Assembly: GCA_965279305.1 (NCBI GenBank)
Contig: OZ257143.1
Coordinates: 1,477,994-1,541,993 of the forward strand
Direction of reading: 5' to 3'
DNA: 64,000 nt
Origin: Gammaproteobacteria bacterium
GTDB taxonomy: Bacteria > Pseudomonadota > Gammaproteobacteria > JBIOEC01
Shown here piece after piece: positions 5,210-17,655 of this stretch. Under the pieces are notes generated by a model. The model saw nothing but the letters and a program-made list of their open reading frames with translations, had not been told where the DNA came from and searched no databases. The position numbers were made by a program, and so were the translations under genes. Position 1 is the first letter of the stretch, and each line of letters starts with the position of its first letter.

Positions 5210-5467
5210 CTACTCATTGTTAAGTTGGTCGATAATAGTTTCAATTGAATAATCATTTGCCATGCCGCTTTCTTCACCTTCGATTAAAGCTGAACGTAAA
5301 GCGCTTAATTTGACTTCTCGTTCCTCCAGCATTCTAAGGCCAGCACGAACAATTTCACTAGCAGAGCCATAGCGACCGGATGATATCTGTTTATCTACAA
5401 AAAGATTGAAATGTTCGCCTAAGGCGATACTGGTTGTTTTTGCCATAAATTCCTCATGGATTACCAA
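5210..5467 (-). CDS. parD: ParD-family type II antitoxin (RHH/CopG fold)
   Basis: The 85-aa protein carries [28 protein letters not shown], matching the Caulobacter-type ParD1 motif (YATASEIVREAVRDWL). No parE follows it. Confidence 0.8.
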
Positions 5468-6487: not shown

Positions 6488-6564
<77 letters not shown>

Positions 6565-7035: not shown

Positions 7036-7797
7036 CTAAGCATATTCTCCCTTTGTCCTCTCAGGCCATTGCCTATAACAATGAACCTGATGAGGGCTAA
7101 AATGACCCTGATAGGCCAATGCCGCTTGGTAAGATGGATCTAAAGAAATCAATGTTACCTGATAGGAATCATTTTCAATAATGAAGGGCTCTGCTGAAAG
7201 TATATTTATTTTATCTAGTGGATAACTAAGTCCACATCCTAAACATTTTAATAGCGCCTCCTTTTGTGTCCAAATCTCAAAAAATAGCTTATTTTGATCT
7301 TTATGTGGAACTATGGAAAGTGTCTTATATTCTTCAGCCGAAAAGAAATGCTGAGCTATGCTCATAAAATCAAAGTTTGAGATCATAAATTCTATGTCTA
7401 CCCCAATGTTTTGATATTGAGAAATTGAGATCAATATATAGTTACCTGCATGTGAAAGATTAAATTGAATATCCCTTATGTTTTGATGGTGTTTTATCCG
7501 CGGTTTTCCAAAGGATGAATAGACAATATGGATATCAGTAGGAGGTAAAGCTAAATATTGCCCTAGTAAGTAACGCAACGCTCCACGAGCAAGAATGTAA
7601 CGTTGGCGATCCTTCTCAAATATATATTTTTTTGATTTCTCCTGTTCATCGGCAGCCAAAAAAGACTGGAGTTGCAATTGATGAGGGGAAAGTTGATCGA
7701 GTGTAAAGCACCATAAATGAATGTTATCACTCGGTAAAACCCAGTTATTCAGACGTAAGGGAGGTGTTATTGGAAGTTCAATTTTTAAAAAAAACAT
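7036..7797 (-). CDS. Sfp-type 4'-phosphopantetheinyl transferase
   Basis: It has the GVDIEFM (G-x-D) motif and the WTQKEALLKCLGCGL (W/F-x-x-KEA-x-x-K) motif. It sits near an NRPS carrier domain. Confidence 0.8.
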   Translation of the reverse strand: MFFLKIELPITPPLRLNNWVLPSDNIHLWCFTLDQLSPHQLQLQSFLAADEQEKSKKYIFEKDRQRYILARGALRYLLGQYLALPPTDIHIVYSSFGKPRIKHHQNIRDIQFNLSHAGNYILISISQYQNIGVDIEFMISNFDFMSIAQHFFSAEEYKTLSIVPHKDQNKLFFEIWTQKEALLKCLGCGLSYPLDKINILSAEPFIIENDSYQVTLISLDPSYQAALAYQGHFSPHQVHCYRQWPERTKGEYA

Positions 7798-8696
7798 AGC
7801 ATGATAGGCTTCAATGATGTTTCAGACTGGTAAAAAAGAGTTCTTTATTCTATGCAAGCGTACATATCTAGCGTAAAAACAGCATTCTAACGTATTTTTT
7901 AATGTACTACCAGCGCCAAAGACTATGTAAACACACATCCTAAAAAGTGGTTGTTTTTTAAGCTATCTTGCGCATAATTTTCTGACTCTTACTAATGTAT
8001 AAGGCCAAAAACATATTGCACTAGTTATGGGAACTTCATCACAAATTAACTCTATTACTATATCAGGTTCAGCTATTGTGATTACTCATGGAGAGTTTTT
8101 AGATTTAATCAGAGAAAATAAACAAGCAAAATCGATCTGATATATACAAGTTAAAAGTATAAAAAATGTGATTGAAATGCTAAATTTTTCTTGACGTAGC
8201 CAATTAATTATATTAATTTGTTAGGCATGGTTAAGTAGTTTAAGATTTTTTTGATTTGAATTTGGGAGAATGCCTCATGAACCACAAGCTGGGGCATGTA
8301 AGGATCCATGAAGTCAAAGAATTACCTTCCCCCTTTGTTAAATTGAATGATTGTTCTATTTCTGATTTTGCAGCGAAATTAATTTTTGAAACGCATAATG
8401 AAATTTCATCATTATTGCATAATATTGATGATTACTTTCGCACCGTCTTTATACGGAATGCCATAACCTCTTGCTAGTGAGTTATCAGAGCTCGCTAATA
8501 CGGTCGAATCAACTGGTTGGAAAATTAAATCTGCAGAAAGAATAGAATACAAAGGTAACGACGCTGCTATTGAAGATTTTAAAAAGAAGAAAGGACTGAA
8601 TATTAAGCTTGATAATAATGGAAGGACTAATTTGCCAGCATGGCATTTGGCCCTTCAAGTCACCGTCTGATAGTGAAAAAATAGGGGCTAATAGAA

Positions 8697-10133
8697 ATGT
8701 TCCAGAAGTATGCTTCATTTGCCGGGTTGAGTCTTGGTTTCTTTATTATTATGATGGACATAACCACTGTACCATTGATGTACCCAACCCTTATGAATGT
8801 GTTTGATGTTAATCCGGCTATGGTCGCTTGGGTCAATAATATTTATCTCATTACTTATGCTTCATTTATTCTTTTAGGAGGTCGGCTTGGAGACTTCACA
8901 AATCGAAAGATTGTATTACTGATTGCTTATTTGGCTATAGGGGTAGGAGCAGCAATTAGTGGTGCAGGACAAAGCTTGTCAGATGTAATTATTGGTCGCG
9001 CATTGATGGGTGTAGGAGCGGGATTATTGACACCACAGAGCATGGCATATATTTCTATTCTTTTTGCGAGTGGAGGTAGAGGAACTGCACTGGGTATCTG
9101 GGGAGCTGTAGCTGGTATTGCCGCTGCTACTGGGCCTATTGTTACCGAGATATTCTTGACAATGGGGGATTGGCGTTGGGTGATGTGGATCAACATTCCT
9201 ATCGTGCTTGTTTGTTTTTTAATTTCCGTTTTGAGTTTACCCAATGTTCCCGGCCGTGGTATTAAATTCTGGGACACTACTGTAAGTGTTTTGTGTGGAG
9301 CGTGTTTGGCAGGAATTATTCTTGGAATCCAATTCATTAATGCGTCTAAATCAATTATAAGCATAGGTGGTGCTCTTTTTATAATGGGAGGTGTGGCTAT
9401 AAGTGTCTTGATTAGAAATGAATTGAAGAAAAAACAGGGATACATTTTGTCACCCGAATTATGGGTTGATAATATTTTTCTCAGAATATGTTTAATTTCA
9501 GGGCTACTTGGATTAAGTCTAACAGCTTTTTATCTTCCTTTAGTATTTCTTTTAGACGTACGAATGAATTTAGGCCCTGTGGCTATAAGCATGGTCATGT
9601 TTACTATCGCGCTGGCTAATGCATTAGTTGGACCATTCGCAGGTAATCTTTCAGACCGTATGGAGCCAGAAATAATTATTAGACGTGGTTTGATTTTATT
9701 TGCAATTGCAAATGCTTTACTTGGTTTTATTGGTATATTCCTGCCTGAAGGAATTTTGGCCTTAGTAGCACTTTTTGCCGTTATGTTTATTGCTGGAGCG
9801 GGTACTGGTTTAGCTTTTGCGCCTCTTGCTAATTTAGCCGTGGGTCGTGCTCAAGTAGCAACTCTAGGTCGTGCTGCCGCTTTTTTCAACTGTGCGCGCC
9901 AAATATCAAGTGCATTAGGTGGTGTGATTGTAGCTATTGTTTTTGATTGGATAATACGCTTACAATTAGAACATGACATTGAAATAACTACTACAACCCT
10001 TCGTGAATCATCGACTATTACTGCTAATGCCACTTTAGCTTGTTTTTTGTTTATTGCTATTAGTTTGTCGGTAGCTGCTTATCTATCTTGTAGAAGTGAG
10101 CAGGAGCTTGTAGTAGATGAATCTGGGGCTTAG
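8697..10133 (+). CDS. MFS transporter (14-TMS drug:H+ antiporter-like), putative exporter
   Basis: It carries MFS motif A, GGRLGDFTNRKI, and is hydrophobic and helix-rich throughout. It lies in the NRPS locus. Confidence 0.8.
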   Translation: MFQKYASFAGLSLGFFIIMMDITTVPLMYPTLMNVFDVNPAMVAWVNNIYLITYASFILLGGRLGDFTNRKIVLLIAYLAIGVGAAISGAGQSLSDVIIGRALMGVGAGLLTPQSMAYISILFASGGRGTALGIWGAVAGIAAATGPIVTEIFLTMGDWRWVMWINIPIVLVCFLISVLSLPNVPGRGIKFWDTTVSVLCGACLAGIILGIQFINASKSIISIGGALFIMGGVAISVLIRNELKKKQGYILSPELWVDNIFLRICLISGLLGLSLTAFYLPLVFLLDVRMNLGPVAISMVMFTIALANALVGPFAGNLSDRMEPEIIIRRGLILFAIANALLGFIGIFLPEGILALVALFAVMFIAGAGTGLAFAPLANLAVGRAQVATLGRAAAFFNCARQISSALGGVIVAIVFDWIIRLQLEHDIEITTTTLRESSTITANATLACFLFIAISLSVAAYLSCRSEQELVVDESGA

Positions 10134-10471
10134 TATCTGTTGTAATGCACAATTTTAGTTGGTAAAGTAAGCTTGTGTATAAGTTCCAAAAATTCGGATT
10201 ATGATATTGAATCATTCAAGTTATTGTACGGACCATGTGAGTTTCTGACTAAGTGTTCGCTATCCTTAAGGTGATATAGGATGGTATGAAAAAGAGTTGC
10301 TTAAGCACTGAGAAGCAAGCAAGATTACTGGTGAGATATATATTAGTGGTACTTTTTTTGTCATATGCTAGATTAAGGTGTACCTATGACAAGAGAAAGA
10401 AGAAGCTCTATGCGGGTTACGGGATAAGTGAAGCAGCAAATGATGATTGGGCGACAGAATAAGAGTCACTA

Positions 10472-11530
10472 TTGACACAATCGAAGGTATTATTGATGAC
10501 AAATTCAACTTCTTTTGGGATAAGTGCATTTGGATATTCATTTGGCGAAAAACAAAATGTGGAAGAAACTGCATGCAATTTTGTTTCTGATCCGGAAAGA
10601 GTTTTTAAATGGGATTGTCAAACCTACTATCGTTCACCCCCTGATCGATTTGCCCTTGATCTGGCAACTGATGCGGCACGTGAAGCTATAAGTAAAGCAA
10701 ATATCGACCCTAATAGTATAGATTTAGTAGCATTTGCTTCAGCAGAAATAGCAGAATATTTATACTGGGATTCCTCAGTTGCACTTGCACGTGCACTGGG
10801 CATTGAAAGAACGCAAACAATGCTACTAAATAATGAAGGTTGCAGTGCAGGGATAAGAATCTTTGGAGCCATTGCAGGAGTCTTTGCAACGCAACCGGAA
10901 ATTCAAACTGTTTTAGTAGTAATAGTTAACCGTGTGAGTGAATATCACAGGAATCGTATGAAGGTTGTTAATTGCATACTAAGCGACGGAGCTGTAACTG
11001 CCGTTTTACAACGTGGCCATCCTCATAATCAATATTTGGCTTCAGACCATTTCGTCTATCCAGAATTTTGCGATTTTTTTCGAATGGATTATGGTGGAAC
11101 AAAAGCCCCCATTACTCCTGCAGGTTGGACTTGCCATGATGAGCATGGTTACGATAAAATATATGAACACTTTGGTGATGATATAGAGAGAATGCAAAAC
11201 TTTTTAACAGTACAGCGTAATGAACGGTTAGCAGAGGTGGTTCAACGTTCTTGTGCACGTGCTAATATATCTAAAGATGATATTTCACATTTCTTTTATG
11301 TTGCTGATTCTCGCCCAGGAGCTATTGCAGAAATTGTAAAACCTTTTGGAATTCCTATCGAAAACACTAACCTTGAATTAGCAAGAATGTATGGGCATAT
11401 GGGGGCTGCTGATCAATTTTTTTCTTTAGGAAAATTTATAGAAAGTAGACATATGGGACCGGGAGATATAGCCGCCATGGCGGGTATTTCATCCGGAATT
11501 CAATGGTGTTCCACTTTGTTTAGAGTATAA
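10472..11530 (+). CDS. FabH-like (KAS III family) thiolase-fold protein with non-canonical catalytic residues
   Basis: It aligns to FabH along its length: EGCSAG to AACAGF (catalytic Cys), SDGAVTAVL to GDGAGAAVL, and the C-terminal GISSGIQWCSTLFRV to GGGFTWGSALVRF. The canonical His and Asn positions appear substituted (YVADS and YGHMG). Confidence 0.65.
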   Translation: MTQSKVLLMTNSTSFGISAFGYSFGEKQNVEETACNFVSDPERVFKWDCQTYYRSPPDRFALDLATDAAREAISKANIDPNSIDLVAFASAEIAEYLYWDSSVALARALGIERTQTMLLNNEGCSAGIRIFGAIAGVFATQPEIQTVLVVIVNRVSEYHRNRMKVVNCILSDGAVTAVLQRGHPHNQYLASDHFVYPEFCDFFRMDYGGTKAPITPAGWTCHDEHGYDKIYEHFGDDIERMQNFLTVQRNERLAEVVQRSCARANISKDDISHFFYVADSRPGAIAEIVKPFGIPIENTNLELARMYGHMGAADQFFSLGKFIESRHMGPGDIAAMAGISSGIQWCSTLFRV

Positions 11531-11534
11531 TCTG

Positions 11535-14500
11535 ATGAATGAAACTATTTTCCAAGCATTTGAAGAACAAGTTAAAAAAACACCTGATTCTATTGCACTT
11601 CTTTTTAAAGAAGAAAAACTTAGCTATAAAGAATTAAATGAAAAATCTAATCAAGTCGCTAGATCCCTGCGTAATCTCTACAAAAAAAATATAGGATTCG
11701 ACCTTAAACCGGATACTCTTATTGGCATTTGTGTTGAACGTAGTTTAGACACCGTTATTGGAATATTAGGAATATTAAAAGCGGGTGGTGCATATGTGCC
11801 AATTGATATTGCCTATCCAGAAGGACGAATCCAATTTTTATTAGAAGATACTAAAAGCCCTTTTATCGTGACGCGGAGGCATTTGCAAGAGAAATTAAAT
11901 AAAATCCATAACAACACATTGCATCAGTTTTTCTTAGACGATCTTTCTTATGATAATGAAAGCAAAGATAATTTAAGTATTATACTAGAACCCAATCATT
12001 TGGCCTACATTATATATACATCAGGAACTACCGGAAAACCAAAAGGTGTTATGCAGACTCATCATAATGTTATGCGCCTATTTACGGCAACACAGGATGT
12101 ATTTGAATTTAACGAAACAGATGTATGGACATTATTCCATTCCTATGTATTTGATTTTACGGTGTGGGAGTTATTGGGTGCTTTAATATATGGTGGAAAA
12201 CTGGTAATACCCAGTCTTGATGAGGTTAAAGATACAAGTAAGTTTTATGATTTATGCGAAAAACATAAGGTTACTGTGTTAAATCAAACACCATTAGTCT
12301 TTTATCAATTTATTGAGGAAGCAATTAATCGTAAAGAAAAACTGAATAGTTTAAGATGCATAATTTTTGGTGGAGATTATCTTAATATTTCTCAATTGAA
12401 ACCTTGGTGGAATCAGTATGGTTTTCTAAAACCTAAATTAATTAATATGTATGGAATTACTGAAACAACGGTATTTGTTACACATAAAATCCTCACTGAA
12501 GCGGATATAAATAAAGGTTCTATCATTGGCACTGTAATTAAAGATCAAAAAGCTTATGTTTTGGATGAGAATTTAAAACCCGTACCCGTCGGAGTTGTTG
12601 GAGAATTATATGTGGGTGGTGCTGGTCTTGCCAGAGGATATTTGAATAGAGAAGAAGTAACACAGGAAAGTTTTATTATCAATCCTTATGCCACAAATGA
12701 AGATCTATTGAAAGGCTATAACCGTATTTATAAAACGGGAGATTTAGTCAAATGGTCTACAAATGGGGATTTAGAATATATCGGCCGTAATGATAAACAA
12801 GTTAAACTACGCGGCTTTCGAATAGAACTGTTAGAAATTGAAAGTATTTTAAACACTTTTACTGGAATAAAACAAAGCACGGTATTGTTAGATAAGAAAA
12901 GCAACAATCCATATTTAATAGGTTACTATCGTTCAGAAGCAAAAATAGATGAGGAAATATTACGATCACATTTAGCTAAACATCTACCGGATTATATGGT
13001 CCCCAACGTTTTAGTCCATTTAAACAAGTTTCCCATTACTATCAATGGAAAATTGGATGTAAACGCATTACCTTGTCCCAATTTTAATTCTACTCAATCT
13101 TCCATAACACTCAAAAATGAGATTGAAAAGGATGTGGCTGCAATTTGGTCGGAAATTTTAGGAATTGATATAATTGGCACAAATGAAGATTTCTTCAGAA
13201 TTGGAGGTGACTCAATTGTAAGTATAAAACTAGTCCTAAAATTGAGAAATAAAGGGTATCATTGTAATGTAAAAAATATATTTGAAAATAGAACCATTGA
13301 AAGCCTAAGCCACTTTTTGAAATCATCTGATATACAATCTAATAAAATTGAAGCAGAACAAGGGTTGTTAACTGGCGAGGTTGATTTATTACCGATTCAA
13401 CAATGGTTTTTTAAAAACAAATTTGATAAGCAGAATCATTGGAATCAATCTTTTTTAATCAAGGTTCCATTATTGGATGTTAATAAATTAAATCATGTCC
13501 TTGAGAAATTAATTGAGCATCATGATGTGTTACGGTTGGTTTTCAAAAAGACAACAAATTTTTATAAACAATTTTATTTGAAAGAAATTAAAATTCCTCT
13601 CATTAATACCTTGGATAGATCTGAACTCTCTGATCAACAACTAATTAATATATTTACCAAATGGCAAAGTGATTTTGATATAGAGAATGGTCCTTTATGG
13701 AAGATAGGCTATGTTACTGGTTATAAAGATAATACCGCTCGGATATATTTTGCCTTGCATCATCTTATTATAGATTCTGTTTCATGGAGAATTTTGATTG
13801 ATCATTTGAAATGTTTGTATGAAAGTAAGGAATTACCCCCAAAAACCAGCAGCTACCGTCAATGGGTGAGGGCTGTGCAACATTATGCGACTTCGAATAA
13901 TCAACAATTAAGTTATTGGGAACAACATTACATCCCTCAAGTACTAGAAGATGATTTTAAATTTCTTAATGAAAATACCGCACATAATATTAAAAATATT
14001 AATCTTGTCACATTAAATGAAAGTTTGACGAAAATTTTATTAAGGAAAGCCAACAAAGCCTATCATACCGAAATTAATCACTTGTTACTCACTGCCTTAG
14101 GATGTGCACTAAGGGATTTAACGAATAAAAGTGAACATATTATTCGTCTTGAAGGGCATGGTCGTGAAAAAATCAATGAAATTATAGATGTTAGTCAAAC
14201 TGTCGGCTGGTTTACAATACTTTATCCTGTCAAGCTTATGGTGAATGACTCATTAGAAAAGTCTATTCTATCTATCAAAGAAATTTTAAAAAGTATTCCT
14301 GACAATGGAATTGGATACAGTGCACTTAAATATGCAAATAGCGAAAATTCTCTTTGTAAACATTGTCCATCGGGAATTAGCTTTAATTACTTGGGCCAGT
14401 TTGATACAGAAACCAGTTTGTGGCAAATTGCCGCAGAAAACTCTGGAAATAATTACGGTGCTAATGCTGATGGAAATCTACTAACGATCACAGGCTGGGT

Positions 14501-14648
14501 TATTGATGGTAAATTAGAATTTGAAATCGTAAGTTGTATGAACGCAATCAAGAGTGAACAATTTTCAAAATTCTTTCAGTCTATTTTAGAAGAAATAATA
14601 GTACATTGCGCAGATTTAGTTAGTAGCGACAAAAAGGCGTTAGTTTAA
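11535..14648 (+). CDS. Non-ribosomal peptide synthetase, single A-T-E module (adenylation, peptidyl carrier, epimerization)
   Basis: A-domain cores are present: A3 LAYIIYTSGTTGKPKGV, A4 FDFTVWE, A5 NMYGITETT, A7 YKTGD, A8 GRNDKQVKLRGFRIELLEIE and A10 NGKLD. The carrier domain has FFRIGGDSIVSIKL, the GGDSI type that precedes E domains. The epimerization cores E1 PIQQWF, E2 HHLIIDSVSWRIL, E4 EGHGRE, E5 QTVGWFTILYP, E6 GIGYSAL and E7 FNYLGQFD are all present. No condensation or thioesterase domain is seen. Confidence 0.9.
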   Translation: MNETIFQAFEEQVKKTPDSIALLFKEEKLSYKELNEKSNQVARSLRNLYKKNIGFDLKPDTLIGICVERSLDTVIGILGILKAGGAYVPIDIAYPEGRIQFLLEDTKSPFIVTRRHLQEKLNKIHNNTLHQFFLDDLSYDNESKDNLSIILEPNHLAYIIYTSGTTGKPKGVMQTHHNVMRLFTATQDVFEFNETDVWTLFHSYVFDFTVWELLGALIYGGKLVIPSLDEVKDTSKFYDLCEKHKVTVLNQTPLVFYQFIEEAINRKEKLNSLRCIIFGGDYLNISQLKPWWNQYGFLKPKLINMYGITETTVFVTHKILTEADINKGSIIGTVIKDQKAYVLDENLKPVPVGVVGELYVGGAGLARGYLNREEVTQESFIINPYATNEDLLKGYNRIYKTGDLVKWSTNGDLEYIGRNDKQVKLRGFRIELLEIESILNTFTGIKQSTVLLDKKSNNPYLIGYYRSEAKIDEEILRSHLAKHLPDYMVPNVLVHLNKFPITINGKLDVNALPCPNFNSTQSSITLKNEIEKDVAAIWSEILGIDIIGTNEDFFRIGGDSIVSIKLVLKLRNKGYHCNVKNIFENRTIESLSHFLKSSDIQSNKIEAEQGLLTGEVDLLPIQQWFFKNKFDKQNHWNQSFLIKVPLLDVNKLNHVLEKLIEHHDVLRLVFKKTTNFYKQFYLKEIKIPLINTLDRSELSDQQLINIFTKWQSDFDIENGPLWKIGYVTGYKDNTARIYFALHHLIIDSVSWRILIDHLKCLYESKELPPKTSSYRQWVRAVQHYATSNNQQLSYWEQHYIPQVLEDDFKFLNENTAHNIKNINLVTLNESLTKILLRKANKAYHTEINHLLLTALGCALRDLTNKSEHIIRLEGHGREKINEIIDVSQTVGWFTILYPVKLMVNDSLEKSILSIKEILKSIPDNGIGYSALKYANSENSLCKHCPSGISFNYLGQFDTETSLWQIAAENSGNNYGANADGNLLTITGWVIDGKLEFEIVSCMNAIKSEQFSKFFQSILEEIIVHCADLVSSDKKALV

Positions 14649-15719
14649 CTTTCTTTCTTGTGCGATTTTTCTAAAATTTTCAAGAGCTTCAGCAGCAGTT
14701 AATTCTTGGCCTTGTAAAACATCGTTAGCGGGTATAATTTTATAGCGCATATTTTCTGGTATTGAATATTTTGTTGGCAAATACAATTGATCTAGCCCTA
14801 TACCAAAAGCACAATTTTCTTGCCCTAAAACTCGAAAATAATGCCTTAATCGATTAGATTCATCTTTAATAATAAATTTTTTCATTTCTGGATCATGACA
14901 TCCATATGTCAAATAATACTCCACATTGTTATTTTCCATTTTACGAACAATATCAACTAAATTGTTATAAAGAACTTCTCCCGGATAAAGCTCCCTATAC
15001 ATTCCTGAATTTCCTGAACGTGCTCTTGCAGTTTCAGGGTAAGGTGGGTTCATTACAACAAAGTCGCCCGTTTGGAGATCAGATAATGCATGCAAAAAAT
15101 CACCACTTTTTAAAATAACATTATTTTTGTTCAAAAGATTTGAGGTTCTATCAACCTCTTCAAAAAAAACTTCTAATGATAGAGAGGCTTCATCAAGGTA
15201 ACGTTGTATTGTTTTTCCTTTTATATTAACTTCTCTATAAACAATATTACCTTGATCATCATGAAGAAGTATCCCACCCCAAGAATGATTAATAATAAAG
15301 GGTAATAATAATGATTTTTCATCCAAATTTGCTTGATTATAATCACTAATTATTTTTAAAAAAAATTCTTTTTTGGTATCTGAGTGGTCATATTCGCGTA
15401 TCAATGATTCATACTTTGATTTTACTCTCTTTGGTGCTTCTTTGATTAGGCATAGAGTATTAATGAGTGCTTCATCACTATCATTAATGATATATTGGTC
15501 TGCTAGACCTAGTTCCATCGCTGCTAAACTCCATGAGGCACTTCCAGAAAGCGGATCAAAACAACGTTTAAATTTTTTGCCTTGCGAATTTGCTATAATG
15601 ACTGCAAAATGATCATCAAGTAAGTTCTTGTCAATTTCCATCCGACCAGAGTGCATGGGTAGTGTTAGGTTTCTATTTCCAAGATAATGTAAGAGTCCGC
15701 CTTTATTTTTTGATAGCAT
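14640..15719 (-). CDS. Dam-family (D12 class, alpha-type) DNA N6-adenine methyltransferase, apparently orphan
   Basis: Motif I CFDPLSGSASWSLAA matches Dam EPFVGAGSVFLNT. YIINDSDEALINTLCLIK matches Dam YILADINSDLISLYNIVK. Motif IV is VVMNPPYPET (DPPY/NPPY). No restriction endonuclease gene is adjacent. Its stop overlaps the NRPS stop by 9 bp, convergently. Confidence 0.8.
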   Translation of the reverse strand: MLSKNKGGLLHYLGNRNLTLPMHSGRMEIDKNLLDDHFAVIIANSQGKKFKRCFDPLSGSASWSLAAMELGLADQYIINDSDEALINTLCLIKEAPKRVKSKYESLIREYDHSDTKKEFFLKIISDYNQANLDEKSLLLPFIINHSWGGILLHDDQGNIVYREVNIKGKTIQRYLDEASLSLEVFFEEVDRTSNLLNKNNVILKSGDFLHALSDLQTGDFVVMNPPYPETARARSGNSGMYRELYPGEVLYNNLVDIVRKMENNNVEYYLTYGCHDPEMKKFIIKDESNRLRHYFRVLGQENCAFGIGLDQLYLPTKYSIPENMRYKIIPANDVLQGQELTAAEALENFRKIAQERKLN

Positions 15720-16023
15720 AGTTTAAACTTCTTAAATATATTGTCATTTAAAATTTTGAATTAAGATTATCATAAATTATAGCTAGTTTCAAGAATTTTA
15801 ATGATACATAGCAATGGATATTGGCTCACATCAATCTTGGCAAATCTCGCAGGCATCTTTCACGAAATAACTACTTGGCACTTGTAAAAGAGGCAGGTAC
15901 TATGGGTGCAAATACGTGCGAAAAGTTAATCATCGCATGAATTAATGGACGTAGGTGAAAGAATGACAGTACATAATGAAATTGTAGTGAAAGCAGTTGC
16001 TAAAATTATGAAAAAAAATAAAA

Positions 16024-17655
16024 ATGTCAAATGACCTGATTTATCTAAAAGAAGACGCTTATTTCGAACCTTTGATAAATCACTGGTTTGCGTGGTCTTA
16101 TCTTATTCCACCGGTTCAGGCTTCACGCTATATCACTAACACTCATAAAAGGATCATGTCTTCCTTCGTTGAAGACACGCAAGTGCACATCTTTGGGTCA
16201 AAAGAACCAGCACTCGCAGGCGGTGACTTTCTCAACGCTCGTGACGATCAGGTGAAAGACATCAAAGCATTGCTGGCGGAGTTCGATGAAAAGCATGCCG
16301 ATGTAGTTAAGCTTTCTGAAGCAGTACAGGAGCTCGACGAGATGATCCGCGCACATATCAGCGGCGAGTCTATTGAATATATGTATGAAAAAGTTCCTCT
16401 GCCGCTCAAAGGCTTCGTCGAAATCGGTATGGATATGAACCACAACCCCTGTTATCGTTTGCTGGAGCATTTGCTTTACAACTCAGAGCATTATCGCAAA
16501 TCACTACAAAGTATCTACTTCGGTTTACTTTCCAAGATCGAAGAGCGTCCTTTCTGTTTTTCGACACCGCGTTTGGCCGATGAGAACCACATTCAATTGG
16601 CGATGGATTTCTGTGCACCAGAGGTAGATATTTTAGTCAAGTCGCGCACTGAAGGCGTACCGTGCGAGATGGTGAATGATATATTTGCGCGCTTCGAGAC
16701 TCGCGGCGGCCTTGATTATCGCGAATTGTTCACTACTGAGCCGCCGTCAAGACGCCGTGAGCCGGTGAGCGATGACAGCTTGAAATTGACTTTCCTCGGT
16801 CATGCCTCGTTTATGATAGAAACCAAAGATATCAATATTTTAATTGATCCGGTAATTCCCATTAGAGGCAAAAAATATGCCGATGACGTGATTAGCTATT
16901 CTGAGCTACCCAAGAAAATCAACTATATTTGCATTACCCACAATCACCATGACCACTATAACCTTGAAACCTTGCTACAGTTGCGCCATAAAACGGACAA
17001 GCTGGTTCTACCCATCAACAATGGTGGAACATTGCCGGATCCGTCGATGAAGCTGATAGCCAAACAATTGGGCTTTAAAGTAATTGAGGTGGACGACTTT
17101 GATGAAATCGAGATCCCAGATGGCAAGATAACGGCGATCCCATTTCTTGGCGAACACGGCGACCTCAATGTGCGTTCAAAAACCGTGTGGCTTATAGAAC
17201 TCAAAGGTAAGAAATACTTCTTCGGCGCCGATGCCACCAACTATAATCCGCAAATGTACCGTCATGTCCAAAAGTTGGTTGGGGATGTCGATGTATTGGC
17301 TATCGGAATGGAATGTGTCGGAGCTCCCTATTCTTGGCTCTATGGTGCACTTAACACTAGGGACGTCAGTAAAAACATCACAAATTCACGTCGTCTGAAC
17401 GGCTCCAATGCCGATCAGGCTTATCATATGGCAGATACTTTCAATGCTAAACAAGTTTATCTTTATGCAATGGGCATGGAACCTTGGTACAAGTACTTTA
17501 TGGGCTTAGTTTATAACGAGAACTCACAGCAAATAATTGAGTCAGATAAGATGATTAAGCGCTGTGAAAATAAAGGAATACCATGTCAACGCTTAGCTCT
17601 TAACTGCTACATTCTGACAGATTTAGGTAGTAGCCACAAAATGGCGCCAGTTTAA
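16024..17655 (+). CDS. Metallo-beta-lactamase-fold protein, 543 aa, with a roughly 255-aa N-terminal domain; possible CmlA-like non-heme diiron beta-hydroxylase
   Basis: The C-terminal half has KLTFLGHASFMIE...ILIDP and the ITHNHHDHY (HxHxDH) metal-binding motif. The size and domain order (helical N-domain then MBL fold) resemble CmlA-type beta-hydroxylases that act on carrier-tethered amino acids. It sits next to the NRPS. Confidence 0.6.
   Translation: MSNDLIYLKEDAYFEPLINHWFAWSYLIPPVQASRYITNTHKRIMSSFVEDTQVHIFGSKEPALAGGDFLNARDDQVKDIKALLAEFDEKHADVVKLSEAVQELDEMIRAHISGESIEYMYEKVPLPLKGFVEIGMDMNHNPCYRLLEHLLYNSEHYRKSLQSIYFGLLSKIEERPFCFSTPRLADENHIQLAMDFCAPEVDILVKSRTEGVPCEMVNDIFARFETRGGLDYRELFTTEPPSRRREPVSDDSLKLTFLGHASFMIETKDINILIDPVIPIRGKKYADDVISYSELPKKINYICITHNHHDHYNLETLLQLRHKTDKLVLPINNGGTLPDPSMKLIAKQLGFKVIEVDDFDEIEIPDGKITAIPFLGEHGDLNVRSKTVWLIELKGKKYFFGADATNYNPQMYRHVQKLVGDVDVLAIGMECVGAPYSWLYGALNTRDVSKNITNSRRLNGSNADQAYHMADTFNAKQVYLYAMGMEPWYKYFMGLVYNENSQQIIESDKMIKRCENKGIPCQRLALNCYILTDLGSSHKMAPV

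Follow-up and report, generated by a model that had tools for sequence, protein, structure and literature searches.

A biosynthetic locus at positions 7036-17655 of a 64-kb stretch of DNA (the whole stretch analysed, hereafter the window) encodes a stand-alone nonribosomal peptide synthetase (NRPS) with an adenylation-thiolation-epimerisation (A-T-E) architecture, next to a protein that resembles β-ketoacyl synthase III (KAS III) and is here called KAS*. We lean, if only somewhat, towards the view that this is an active or recently active off-loading cassette of mosaic origin, in which KAS* would carry out a carrier-dependent aminoacyl transfer. Judged from sequence comparisons, the locus most likely goes back to that branch of an ehp/pelagiomicin-type phenazine cluster which makes the amino-acid ester; KAS* and the A-T-E synthetase would have taken the place of its activation, carrier and transfer genes, and the genes for the scaffold either disappeared or had not been part of the locus at all. 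The genes were identified by means of a map of open reading frames (ORFs), profile searches and sequence comparison with the PDB, and are the following:

6488-6564, + strand: tRNA-Met, between rpsD and the gene on the next line, at the edge of the locus
7036-7797, - strand: Sfp/HetI-type 4′-phosphopantetheinyl transferase (PPTase), 253 amino acids (aa) (PF01648, ACPS, 61 bits; PF22624, AASDHPPT_N, 50 bits)
8383-8667, + strand: methyltransferase pseudogene (ψMT), the remnant of an ehp-type S-adenosylmethionine-dependent enzyme (tblastn with ehp-cluster proteins)
8697-10133, + strand: DHA2-type major facilitator superfamily (MFS) exporter of the EhpJ type, orthologue-like (MFS_1, E = 4e-43; 53-65% identity to the MFS proteins of ehp-type clusters)
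10496-11530, + strand: KAS*, KAS III-like acyltransferase, 344 aa (ACP_syn_III_C, 47 bits), counted from the ATG at 10496 (protein P0128); the ORF itself opens at a TTG at 10472
11535-14648, + strand: stand-alone NRPS (A-T-E), 1037 aa (AMP-binding, E = 1e-86; PP-binding; Condensation-superfamily domain, E = 6e-62)
about 11559-13052, 13131-13319 and 13377-14627, + strand: A, T and E domains of the NRPS, in this order (profile search)
14640-15719, - strand: divergent D12-class (Dam/DpnM-like) methyltransferase with an NPPY motif (TIGR00571, 46 bits, under the cutoff)
16024-17655, + strand: CmlA-family non-haem diiron β-hydroxylase, 543 aa (CmlA_N, PF18456, E = 1e-76, 257 bits)

An earlier, sequence-only reading of this DNA had grouped the PPTase, the MFS exporter, a FabH-like protein and the 1037-aa A-T-E synthetase in one cluster, and all these ORFs were recovered where it had placed them, with strong domain matches. 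It had also considered that the A domain might be degenerate, which is not the case: in the translation all A1-A10 core motifs are intact (LSYKEL, LKAGGAYVPID, YTSGTTGKPKG, FDFT, NMYGITE, GELYVGGAGLARGYL, YKTGD, GRNDKQVKLRGFRIE, LPDYMVP and NGKLD), and the domain scored 422 bits against TIGR01733 (cutoff 317). The T domain (PP-binding, 45 bits) carries the phosphopantetheine serine in a GGDS motif (FFRIGGDSI), and is presumed to be activated by the PPTase, which reached 160 bits with the HetI profile NF042922, i.e., a value under the equivalog cutoff. The C-terminal domain is an epimerisation domain. Its 10 best PDB matches were all chains that contain an E domain (BacC, GrsA, TycB, TycA and PvdL; E = 1e-59 to 5e-70), whereas the matches mediated by a condensation (C) domain (LgrA and TycC) reached only ~1e-7. 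The motifs PIQQWF, HHLIIDSVSW, EGHGRE, TVGWFT and FNYLGQ are all present; the Gly of HHxxxDG is a Ser here, and A, T, S or V occupies that position in 17 of the 22 closest E-domain relatives. By its motifs the E domain looks active, and an inactive A or E domain, as a candidate explanation, was rejected because the motifs are intact.

The synthetase lacks a partner in the window. It has no N-terminal C domain, and it ends 10 residues past the last E-domain helix, without the TPSDF/COM tail. In the E-terminated homologues P0006, P0052, P0112, P0119 and P0002 the E domain is followed by (T/A)(P/S)SDF and a tail of ~20 residues, and these tail-bearing proteins hand over to a separate NRPS, the gene of which comes next. 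No TPSDF relic was found 3′ of the NRPS stop codon. Hence, the likeness to GrsA/TycA proposed earlier holds for the domain order, but not for the docking tail. Profile searches detected no further Condensation or Thioesterase domain in ORFs of at least 80-100 aa across the 64-kb window, and tblastn with C and thioesterase (TE) queries detected no relics of such domains there, so that the earlier statement that the window has neither was borne out. The same applies to a multimodular NRPS with C and TE domains: none lies within the window, where the flanks consist of suf genes, rpsD and tRNA-Met upstream and of effector genes downstream. The closest relatives of the synthetase (43-55% identity) are modules within unrelated multimodular synthetases, and a genome scan with NRPS peptide patterns gave no matches, so that no syntenic relatives of the NRPS were found. 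The lack of the TPSDF tail, together with the lack of a C domain in the window, makes it less probable that the module works in trans with another NRPS. One NRPS homologue carries a C-terminal metallo-β-lactamase (MBL) fusion in a context that is not CmlA-like. In locus L001 (10001-15331), protein P0016 is a terminal C-A-T-E module fused to a C-terminal MBL fold, possibly a non-canonical release domain.

The stop codon of KAS* lies 4 nt from the start of the NRPS gene. The catalytic triad of KAS*, Cys116/His301/Asp306, is invariant in 25 family members and in register with EhpO-type proteins, and its His and Asp are in register with ChlB3; the triad of the condensing FabH is Cys-His-Asn. The relatives of solved structure are 7vyu, ChlB3, CerJ and DpsC, with at most 49 bits to any of them, and the EhpO-type proteins scored 96-125 bits. 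In ChlB3 and CerJ, Cys-His-Asp serves to transfer acyl groups and not to condense them with decarboxylation, and ChlB3 also hydrolyses N-acetylcysteamine (SNAC) thioesters (PMC9573744). The KAS III-like AfcL releases a peptidyl chain from its carrier via a Cys thioester and forms an amide bond (PMC12186527). Of the ideas put forward in the earlier reading, a non-canonical release by the KAS III-like protein is the best supported.

The genomic context of the KAS* family (42-59% identity, ~344 aa, mainly actinobacterial with Burkholderia outliers) was surveyed in 80 genome and 63 metagenome loci. With few exceptions, mostly on short contigs, a loader and a carrier protein adjoin the KAS* relative in the genome loci. 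An FkbH-domain protein follows it in 53 of the 80, in most cases with a small acyl carrier protein (ACP) too, and the pattern recurred with 41 of the 63 relatives from metagenomes. In 9/80 genome loci the relative occupies the EhpO position of actinomycete ehp-like phenazine clusters (some of these relatives share 45-47% identity with KAS*), with an AMP-binding protein and a carrier protein upstream (the latter detectable in 8), and in ~17/80 an AMP-binding-like gene lies downstream, with a small intervening ORF, possibly a carrier protein, in the one locus examined. The loader next door thus varies while the KAS III-like enzyme stays, which fits an acyl-S-carrier:acceptor transferase. A few FkbH-paired loci are found within phenazine clusters of Burkholderia and Streptomyces, and we infer that these cassettes may make griseolutein-type hydroxyacyl esters. 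The best homologue of KAS* (59% identity) lies on a 3.2-kb contig, and the first 29 residues of the next ORF resemble the start of a C domain.

Two further observations concern this family. The KAS III-like gene, the FkbH-domain gene (~616 aa, no Pfam hit, TIGR01686 E = 5e-80) and a small ACP gene form a conserved cassette (L014-L093, L098-L160), located at ~11.0-13.2 kb in the full-length loci, mostly from actinomycetes and usually without phenazine genes nearby. On a plasmid of Streptomyces sp. NBC_01296 (NZ_CP130721.1, 157371-182384; L013), a KAS III-like gene whose product is 39% identical lies between cytochrome P450 and MFS genes, and a large polyketide synthase (PKS), a 780-aa adenylation protein and an ACP are encoded nearby; it is perhaps an analogous hydroxylate-and-transfer cassette that acts on a polyketide.

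The evidence for the origin of the locus comes from its flanks. The gene order in the clusters of Microbulbifer variabilis, the pelagiomicin producer formerly named Pelagiobacter variabilis, and of a metagenome contig from JGI is methyltransferase, MFS, short-chain dehydrogenase/reductase (SDR), acyl-CoA dehydrogenase-like (ACAD-like), AMP-binding (~500 aa), PP-binding carrier (~80 aa), KAS III-like (~340 aa), CmlA and phz. The window has ψMT-MFS-(KAS*-A-T-E)-CmlA, in the same order and orientation as the ehp-type flanks. Over ~470 aa, its MFS protein is 65% identical to that of M. variabilis, 58% to that of the JGI contig and 53% to that of the Pantoea cluster (tblastn). ψMT is 64% identical to residues 142-224 of the 224-residue M. 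variabilis methyltransferase, 68% to the JGI protein and 45% to the Pantoea protein (tblastn); only the C-terminal ~80-94 residues are left, the N-terminal 140 are gone, an in-frame stop interrupts the remnant (MP*PLA), and the MFS gene comes right after it, which is also the arrangement of the ehp clusters. In Pantoea agglomerans the biosynthetic part of the ehp cluster, which is that for D-alanylgriseoluteic acid (overview in PMC3175449), closes with three genes that encode an AMP-binding protein, an ACP and a KAS III-like protein, and EhpO is reported to attach the amino-acid moiety to griseoluteic acid (PMC11310501). The replacement of this trio in the window is 21-27% identical to the ehp versions, with only 25% between the ehp ligase and the A-T-E protein. 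The collinearity and the identities of ψMT, MFS and CmlA argue for an in-place replacement by a functionally equivalent module, and this is our main argument that KAS* and the A-T-E synthetase do the same job as the trio, i.e., the activation of an amino acid, its tethering to a carrier and its transfer. The earlier reading described a minimal NRPS locus; an origin de novo is at odds with this collinearity of ψMT, MFS and CmlA with ehp/pelagiomicin-type clusters, which indicates a mosaic. The JGI contig (JGI 3300066487, Ga0606642_0000043, 47305-68933; L094) has 38.6% GC, and its ehp-like phenazine cluster is complete and includes CmlA; it also has a PhzE split into Chorismate_bind and GATase ORFs, shikimate-pathway genes of its own and an F-box-like protein nearby. 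Its source may be a relative that lives with a host and has kept the full pathway.

The product of 16024-17655 is by its sequence unambiguously a CmlA-family diiron β-hydroxylase (E = 2e-113 against PDB 8a90 and 3e-102 against CmlA, 4jo0). It has the CmlA_N domain and the MBL fold with HxHxDH intact, and THNHHDH, the Glu of GEHGD and the Asp of GAD are aligned with 8a90. The earlier reading had noted a CmlA-sized MBL-fold protein further out; the fold was correct, but by analogy with its family the enzyme would hydroxylate a carrier-bound amino acid, and would belong to the core of the system and not be a bystander. The A-T protein lies 1.4 kb upstream of its gene. Its homologues share 73-79% identity, and the two closest with a readable context (74% and 77%) are both encoded right after AMP-binding, PP-binding and KAS III-like genes. 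A search of a plasmid collection recovered the Pantoea ehp cluster and no close CmlA homologue.

In order to predict the substrate, the specificity (Stachelhaus) code of the A domain was read as DFWNIGMVFK. The Thr code DFWNIGMVHK is found in 93 homologous A domains, including PvdD-annotated homologues, and the only change with respect to them is His to Phe at position 331. The A-T-E module is evidently descended from a Thr to D-allo-Thr module. In Thr-specific A domains this His contacts the side-chain hydroxyl, and Val is isosteric with Thr; the loss of the hydroxyl-binding His in favour of Phe would therefore favour Val. The code ending V-F-K is common to the window A domain and the ehp-type ligases of M. 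variabilis, the JGI contig and Pantoea (DYWSLAAVFK, DYWSIAVVFK and DFWSVCTVFK). If pelagiomicin A of M. variabilis is the ester of griseoluteic acid with 3-hydroxyvaline, its cluster would require just such a pair, a Val-loading enzyme and CmlA. The substrate is probably a small β-branched, Val-like amino acid, with Thr or aminobutyrate as possible alternatives, and given the Thr/D-allo-Thr ancestry and an apparently active E domain, the expected unit is a D-configured β-hydroxy (or β-branched) aminoacyl group.

In the mechanism that we infer, the cassette would be expressed, the T domain would be primed by the PPTase and the A domain would load the small β-branched amino acid onto it. The CmlA-family enzyme would then hydroxylate the thioester-bound residue at Cβ, and the E domain would invert Cα to the D configuration. 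KAS* would take up the aminoacyl group on its active-site Cys and pass it to an external nucleophile, most likely a hydroxyl, which would give an ester by analogy with EhpO, and this transfer would be the release that is otherwise given by a C or TE domain. The product would finally be exported by the EhpJ-like MFS protein. An N-acyl-D-amino acid, the product suggested in the earlier reading, has less support than such an aminoacyl transfer.

The base composition bears on whether the cassette is maintained. The G+C content at third codon positions (GC3) is 0.30 for the PPTase, 0.28 for the MFS, 0.23 for KAS* and 0.22-0.26 for the NRPS gene, with 0.21-0.36 in the background genes of the window, which presumably reflects a long residence (amelioration) of these four genes. 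Because they are ameliorated yet intact, while the adjoining methyltransferase has decayed, maintenance by selection rather than neutral drift is indicated. However, several points weigh against an active cassette or against the chemistry proposed. The CmlA gene is deviant (GC3 of 0.49, against 0.21-0.36 in 26 other coding segments, from 24 genes, of the window, and 0.21-0.31 in its neighbours), so that it may have arrived separately or more recently, or may itself be a replacement, and a foreign gene on the opposite strand, the Dam-like methylase gene, stands inside the locus between the CmlA and NRPS genes. No match to phzA/B, D, E, F or G was found in the 64-kb window by tblastn with three query sets and E values up to 1-20, nor to the acceptor-side genes ehpF, ehpG, SDR and ACAD-like; hence, the locus is not a member of the ehp cluster family. 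The intergenic DNA showed no relics of C, TE, SDR, ACAD or phz genes, the methyltransferase being the only relic. Since the methyltransferase specific for the scaffold is a pseudogene and the scaffold genes are absent, the cassette may have lost its purpose. The substrate prediction depends on a single pocket residue, and the 3-hydroxyvaline side chain of pelagiomicin A was not confirmed in the literature searched, where pelagiomicins are described only as phenazine-peptide hybrids or griseolutein analogues. KAS* is just 21-27% identical to the EhpO-type enzymes, and most of its relatives stand with an FkbH protein and an ACP, a pairing that in tetronate pathways serves C-C/C-O ring formation, so that ester transfer is not the sole chemistry available to the family. 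The combination of KAS*, A-T-E and CmlA was not found again in the 80 genome and 63 metagenome loci.

In a rival explanation, the locus is the decaying relic of a horizontally acquired phenazine-amino-acid ester cluster, with the remaining genes useless without a scaffold and heading to pseudogenes. The truncated methyltransferase with its stop codon and the disappearance of all scaffold genes from the window would fit such a decay, as would the Dam-like gene that lies within the former cluster and overlaps the NRPS end, the loss of the C-terminal tail that the NRPS homologues have, and a small 1.87-Mb contig with effector-like host-associated genes in the window. We nevertheless regard a relic as unlikely, since five uninterrupted ORFs over ~8 kb, among them a 3.1-kb NRPS gene, have all their catalytic motifs, four of the five have a host-like GC3, which points to a long residence without decay, KAS* and the NRPS keep their coupled 4-nt junction, and the KAS*/A-T-E pair is itself a replacement, which implies selection for function after acquisition. 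The module could also be an ordinary initiation module that passes its D-aminoacyl thioester in trans to the C domain of an NRPS encoded elsewhere, with the KAS III-like and CmlA proteins supplying or tailoring building blocks. This would account for the GrsA/TycA layout, for nearest homologues that are modules of multimodular NRPSs and for the C-domain-like ORF start that follows the best KAS* homologue, but we consider it improbable with no C or TE domain in 64 kb, without the TPSDF/COM-type tail of the E-terminated homologues, with housekeeping and effector genes as flanks, and on a 1.87-Mb contig where the examined window proteins are all singletons.

Other explanations accept that KAS* acts on the carrier-bound amino acid but assign it a different reaction. 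By analogy with tetronate formation by FkbH, ACP and FabH-like proteins, it might join the 2-amino-3-hydroxyacyl thioester to a β-ketoacyl or acyl thioester, which would lead to an N-acyl amino acid, a tetramate-like ring or a β-lactone, with release by cyclisation. The FkbH-domain protein next to so many of its genomic and metagenomic relatives, the structural likeness of glyceryl-S-ACP to a β-hydroxy-aminoacyl-S-T and the amide bond made by AfcL speak for such a reaction; we give it little weight, however, for the window has no acyl-activating enzyme, ACP or PKS to supply the second substrate, the collinear relatives of MFS, CmlA and ψMT are all in ester-forming ehp clusters, and the Cys-His-Asp triad is of the acyl-transfer type. 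The other reaction is hydrolysis: KAS* might release a free D-β-hydroxy amino acid for export by the MFS, comparable to the BpsD/OxyD/Bhp-type supply of β-hydroxytyrosine. While ChlB3 does hydrolyse SNAC thioesters, and no acceptor pathway is visible here, this appears very improbable to us, because the three flanking genes all have relatives that take part in making esters, and a dedicated exporter of the phenazine type and an E domain would be unusual for a building-block supply without a consumer.

A more speculative reading, which we consider rather unlikely, is that the cassette has outlived the phenazine pathway and was kept by a host-associated bacterium with a small genome, which would place the D-β-hydroxy amino acid on another acceptor or cyclise it to a small reactive product. 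The acceptor could then be, for example, an alcohol or amine of the host or the envelope, functionally akin to Dlt-type D-alanylation. With either fate of the residue, release from the NRPS would depend on the KAS III-like enzyme as its sole catalyst. The KAS III-like Cys-His-Asp acyltransferase is a testable answer to the release problem, i.e., how a lone A-T-E module can be off-loaded without a C or TE domain, and the locus documents how a non-orthologous activation/carrier/transfer module was swapped in place while the frame of the cluster was conserved. An active cassette would make a D-configured β-hydroxy-aminoacyl conjugate in a host-associated bacterium of a lineage without close sequenced relatives, and the few KAS III-like aminoacyl transferases would be joined by one with an NRPS-fused donor, with a possible use in the enzymatic formation of aminoacyl esters. 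If it is a relic, it would be a snapshot of the decay of a biosynthetic cluster in which the scaffold genes go first. The interest would grow if a non-phenazine acceptor were found.

The remaining features define the setting. The earlier reading had listed a Dam-family methyltransferase, of which the ORF stands, but the family match is weak (see the TIGR00571 score above). The protein matched DpnM (2dpm) with E = 7e-7, with vmnPPYpet in the alignment, and phrog_56 (DNA methyltransferase) with E = 1.5e-7, and its gene is convergent with the NRPS gene, with a 9-nt overlap at the 3′ end of the latter. It is probably interposed and unrelated to the cassette. A restriction partner is not visible, and the protein could be an orphan DNA methylase. 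A genomic island integrated at the tRNA-Met was considered, but it is unsupported: neither a direct repeat of the tRNA 3′ end nor an integrase was found downstream. A ParD-type antitoxin gene (5210-5467, - strand; E = 3e-32) has no obvious ParE toxin ORF adjoining it. Downstream of the locus, a run of eukaryote- or effector-like genes (19014-20747, 24518-26215, 30542-32665, 36797-40627 and 42240-49291) encodes a Ser/Thr protein kinase, a protein with U-box and ankyrin domains, TPR proteins of 565 and 1276 aa and three more large proteins of 967, 692 and 679 aa, of which two resemble P-loop GTPases at the N-terminus. The predicted kinase, U-box/ankyrin and TPR proteins suggest a host-associated lifestyle, consistent with an intracellular, Legionellales-like one. 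On the 1.87-Mb host contig, every window protein examined, including rpsD, is a singleton at 90% identity. A promoter/terminator scan gave counts equal to the shuffled expectation and was thus uninformative.

Compared with known systems, the locus is closest to the EhpM/N/O branch of Pantoea agglomerans Eh1087, in which adenylation, carrier function and a KAS III-like enzyme with Cys-His-Asp(Glu) are likewise combined with an MFS protein of the same family, and the product of which carries a D-amino acid, as expected for the window. The CmlA-containing ehp versions (M. variabilis and the 38.6%-GC JGI contig) share in addition a CmlA protein 74-77% identical to that of the window and the flank order from the methyltransferase and MFS genes to CmlA. 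In contrast to the ehp systems, which use a DltA-like ligase and a free carrier protein, the window fuses activation and carrier with an E domain in a true NRPS; its KAS* is of another clade, the window lacks the phenazine core, ehpF/G, SDR and ACAD-like genes, and of the methyltransferase only the pseudogene is left. GrsA and TycA show the same A-T-E order with intact A, T and E motifs (E-domain matches with E = 1e-63 to 1e-69), but the window protein has neither a C-domain partner nor the TPSDF/COM donor tail, is coupled to a KAS III-like gene, and has a predicted substrate that is small and aliphatic or hydroxylated, not Phe. With CmlP (A-T-R, where R is a reductase domain) and CmlA of chloramphenicol biosynthesis, and with other CmlA-family hydroxylases, it shares CmlA_N, the diiron MBL fold with its HxHxDH motif and the position next to a stand-alone A-T protein; here, however, the release would not proceed via a reductase domain, and the likely substrate is aliphatic and not p-aminophenylalanine. 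ChlB3, CerJ and AfcL share with KAS* the thiolase fold, Cys-His-Asp and the uptake of an acyl group from a carrier for delivery to O or N nucleophiles, but the sequence similarity, assessed for ChlB3 and CerJ, is low (E = 1e-7 to 2e-11), and the donors of the three are aromatic, malonyl or peptidyl, whereas that of the window would be a single aminoacyl group. An NRPS-fused A-T-E donor, a KAS III-like protein of the FkbH-associated clade, a CmlA enzyme that would act on the carrier, no visible acceptor pathway and a small host-associated genome together distinguish the locus.

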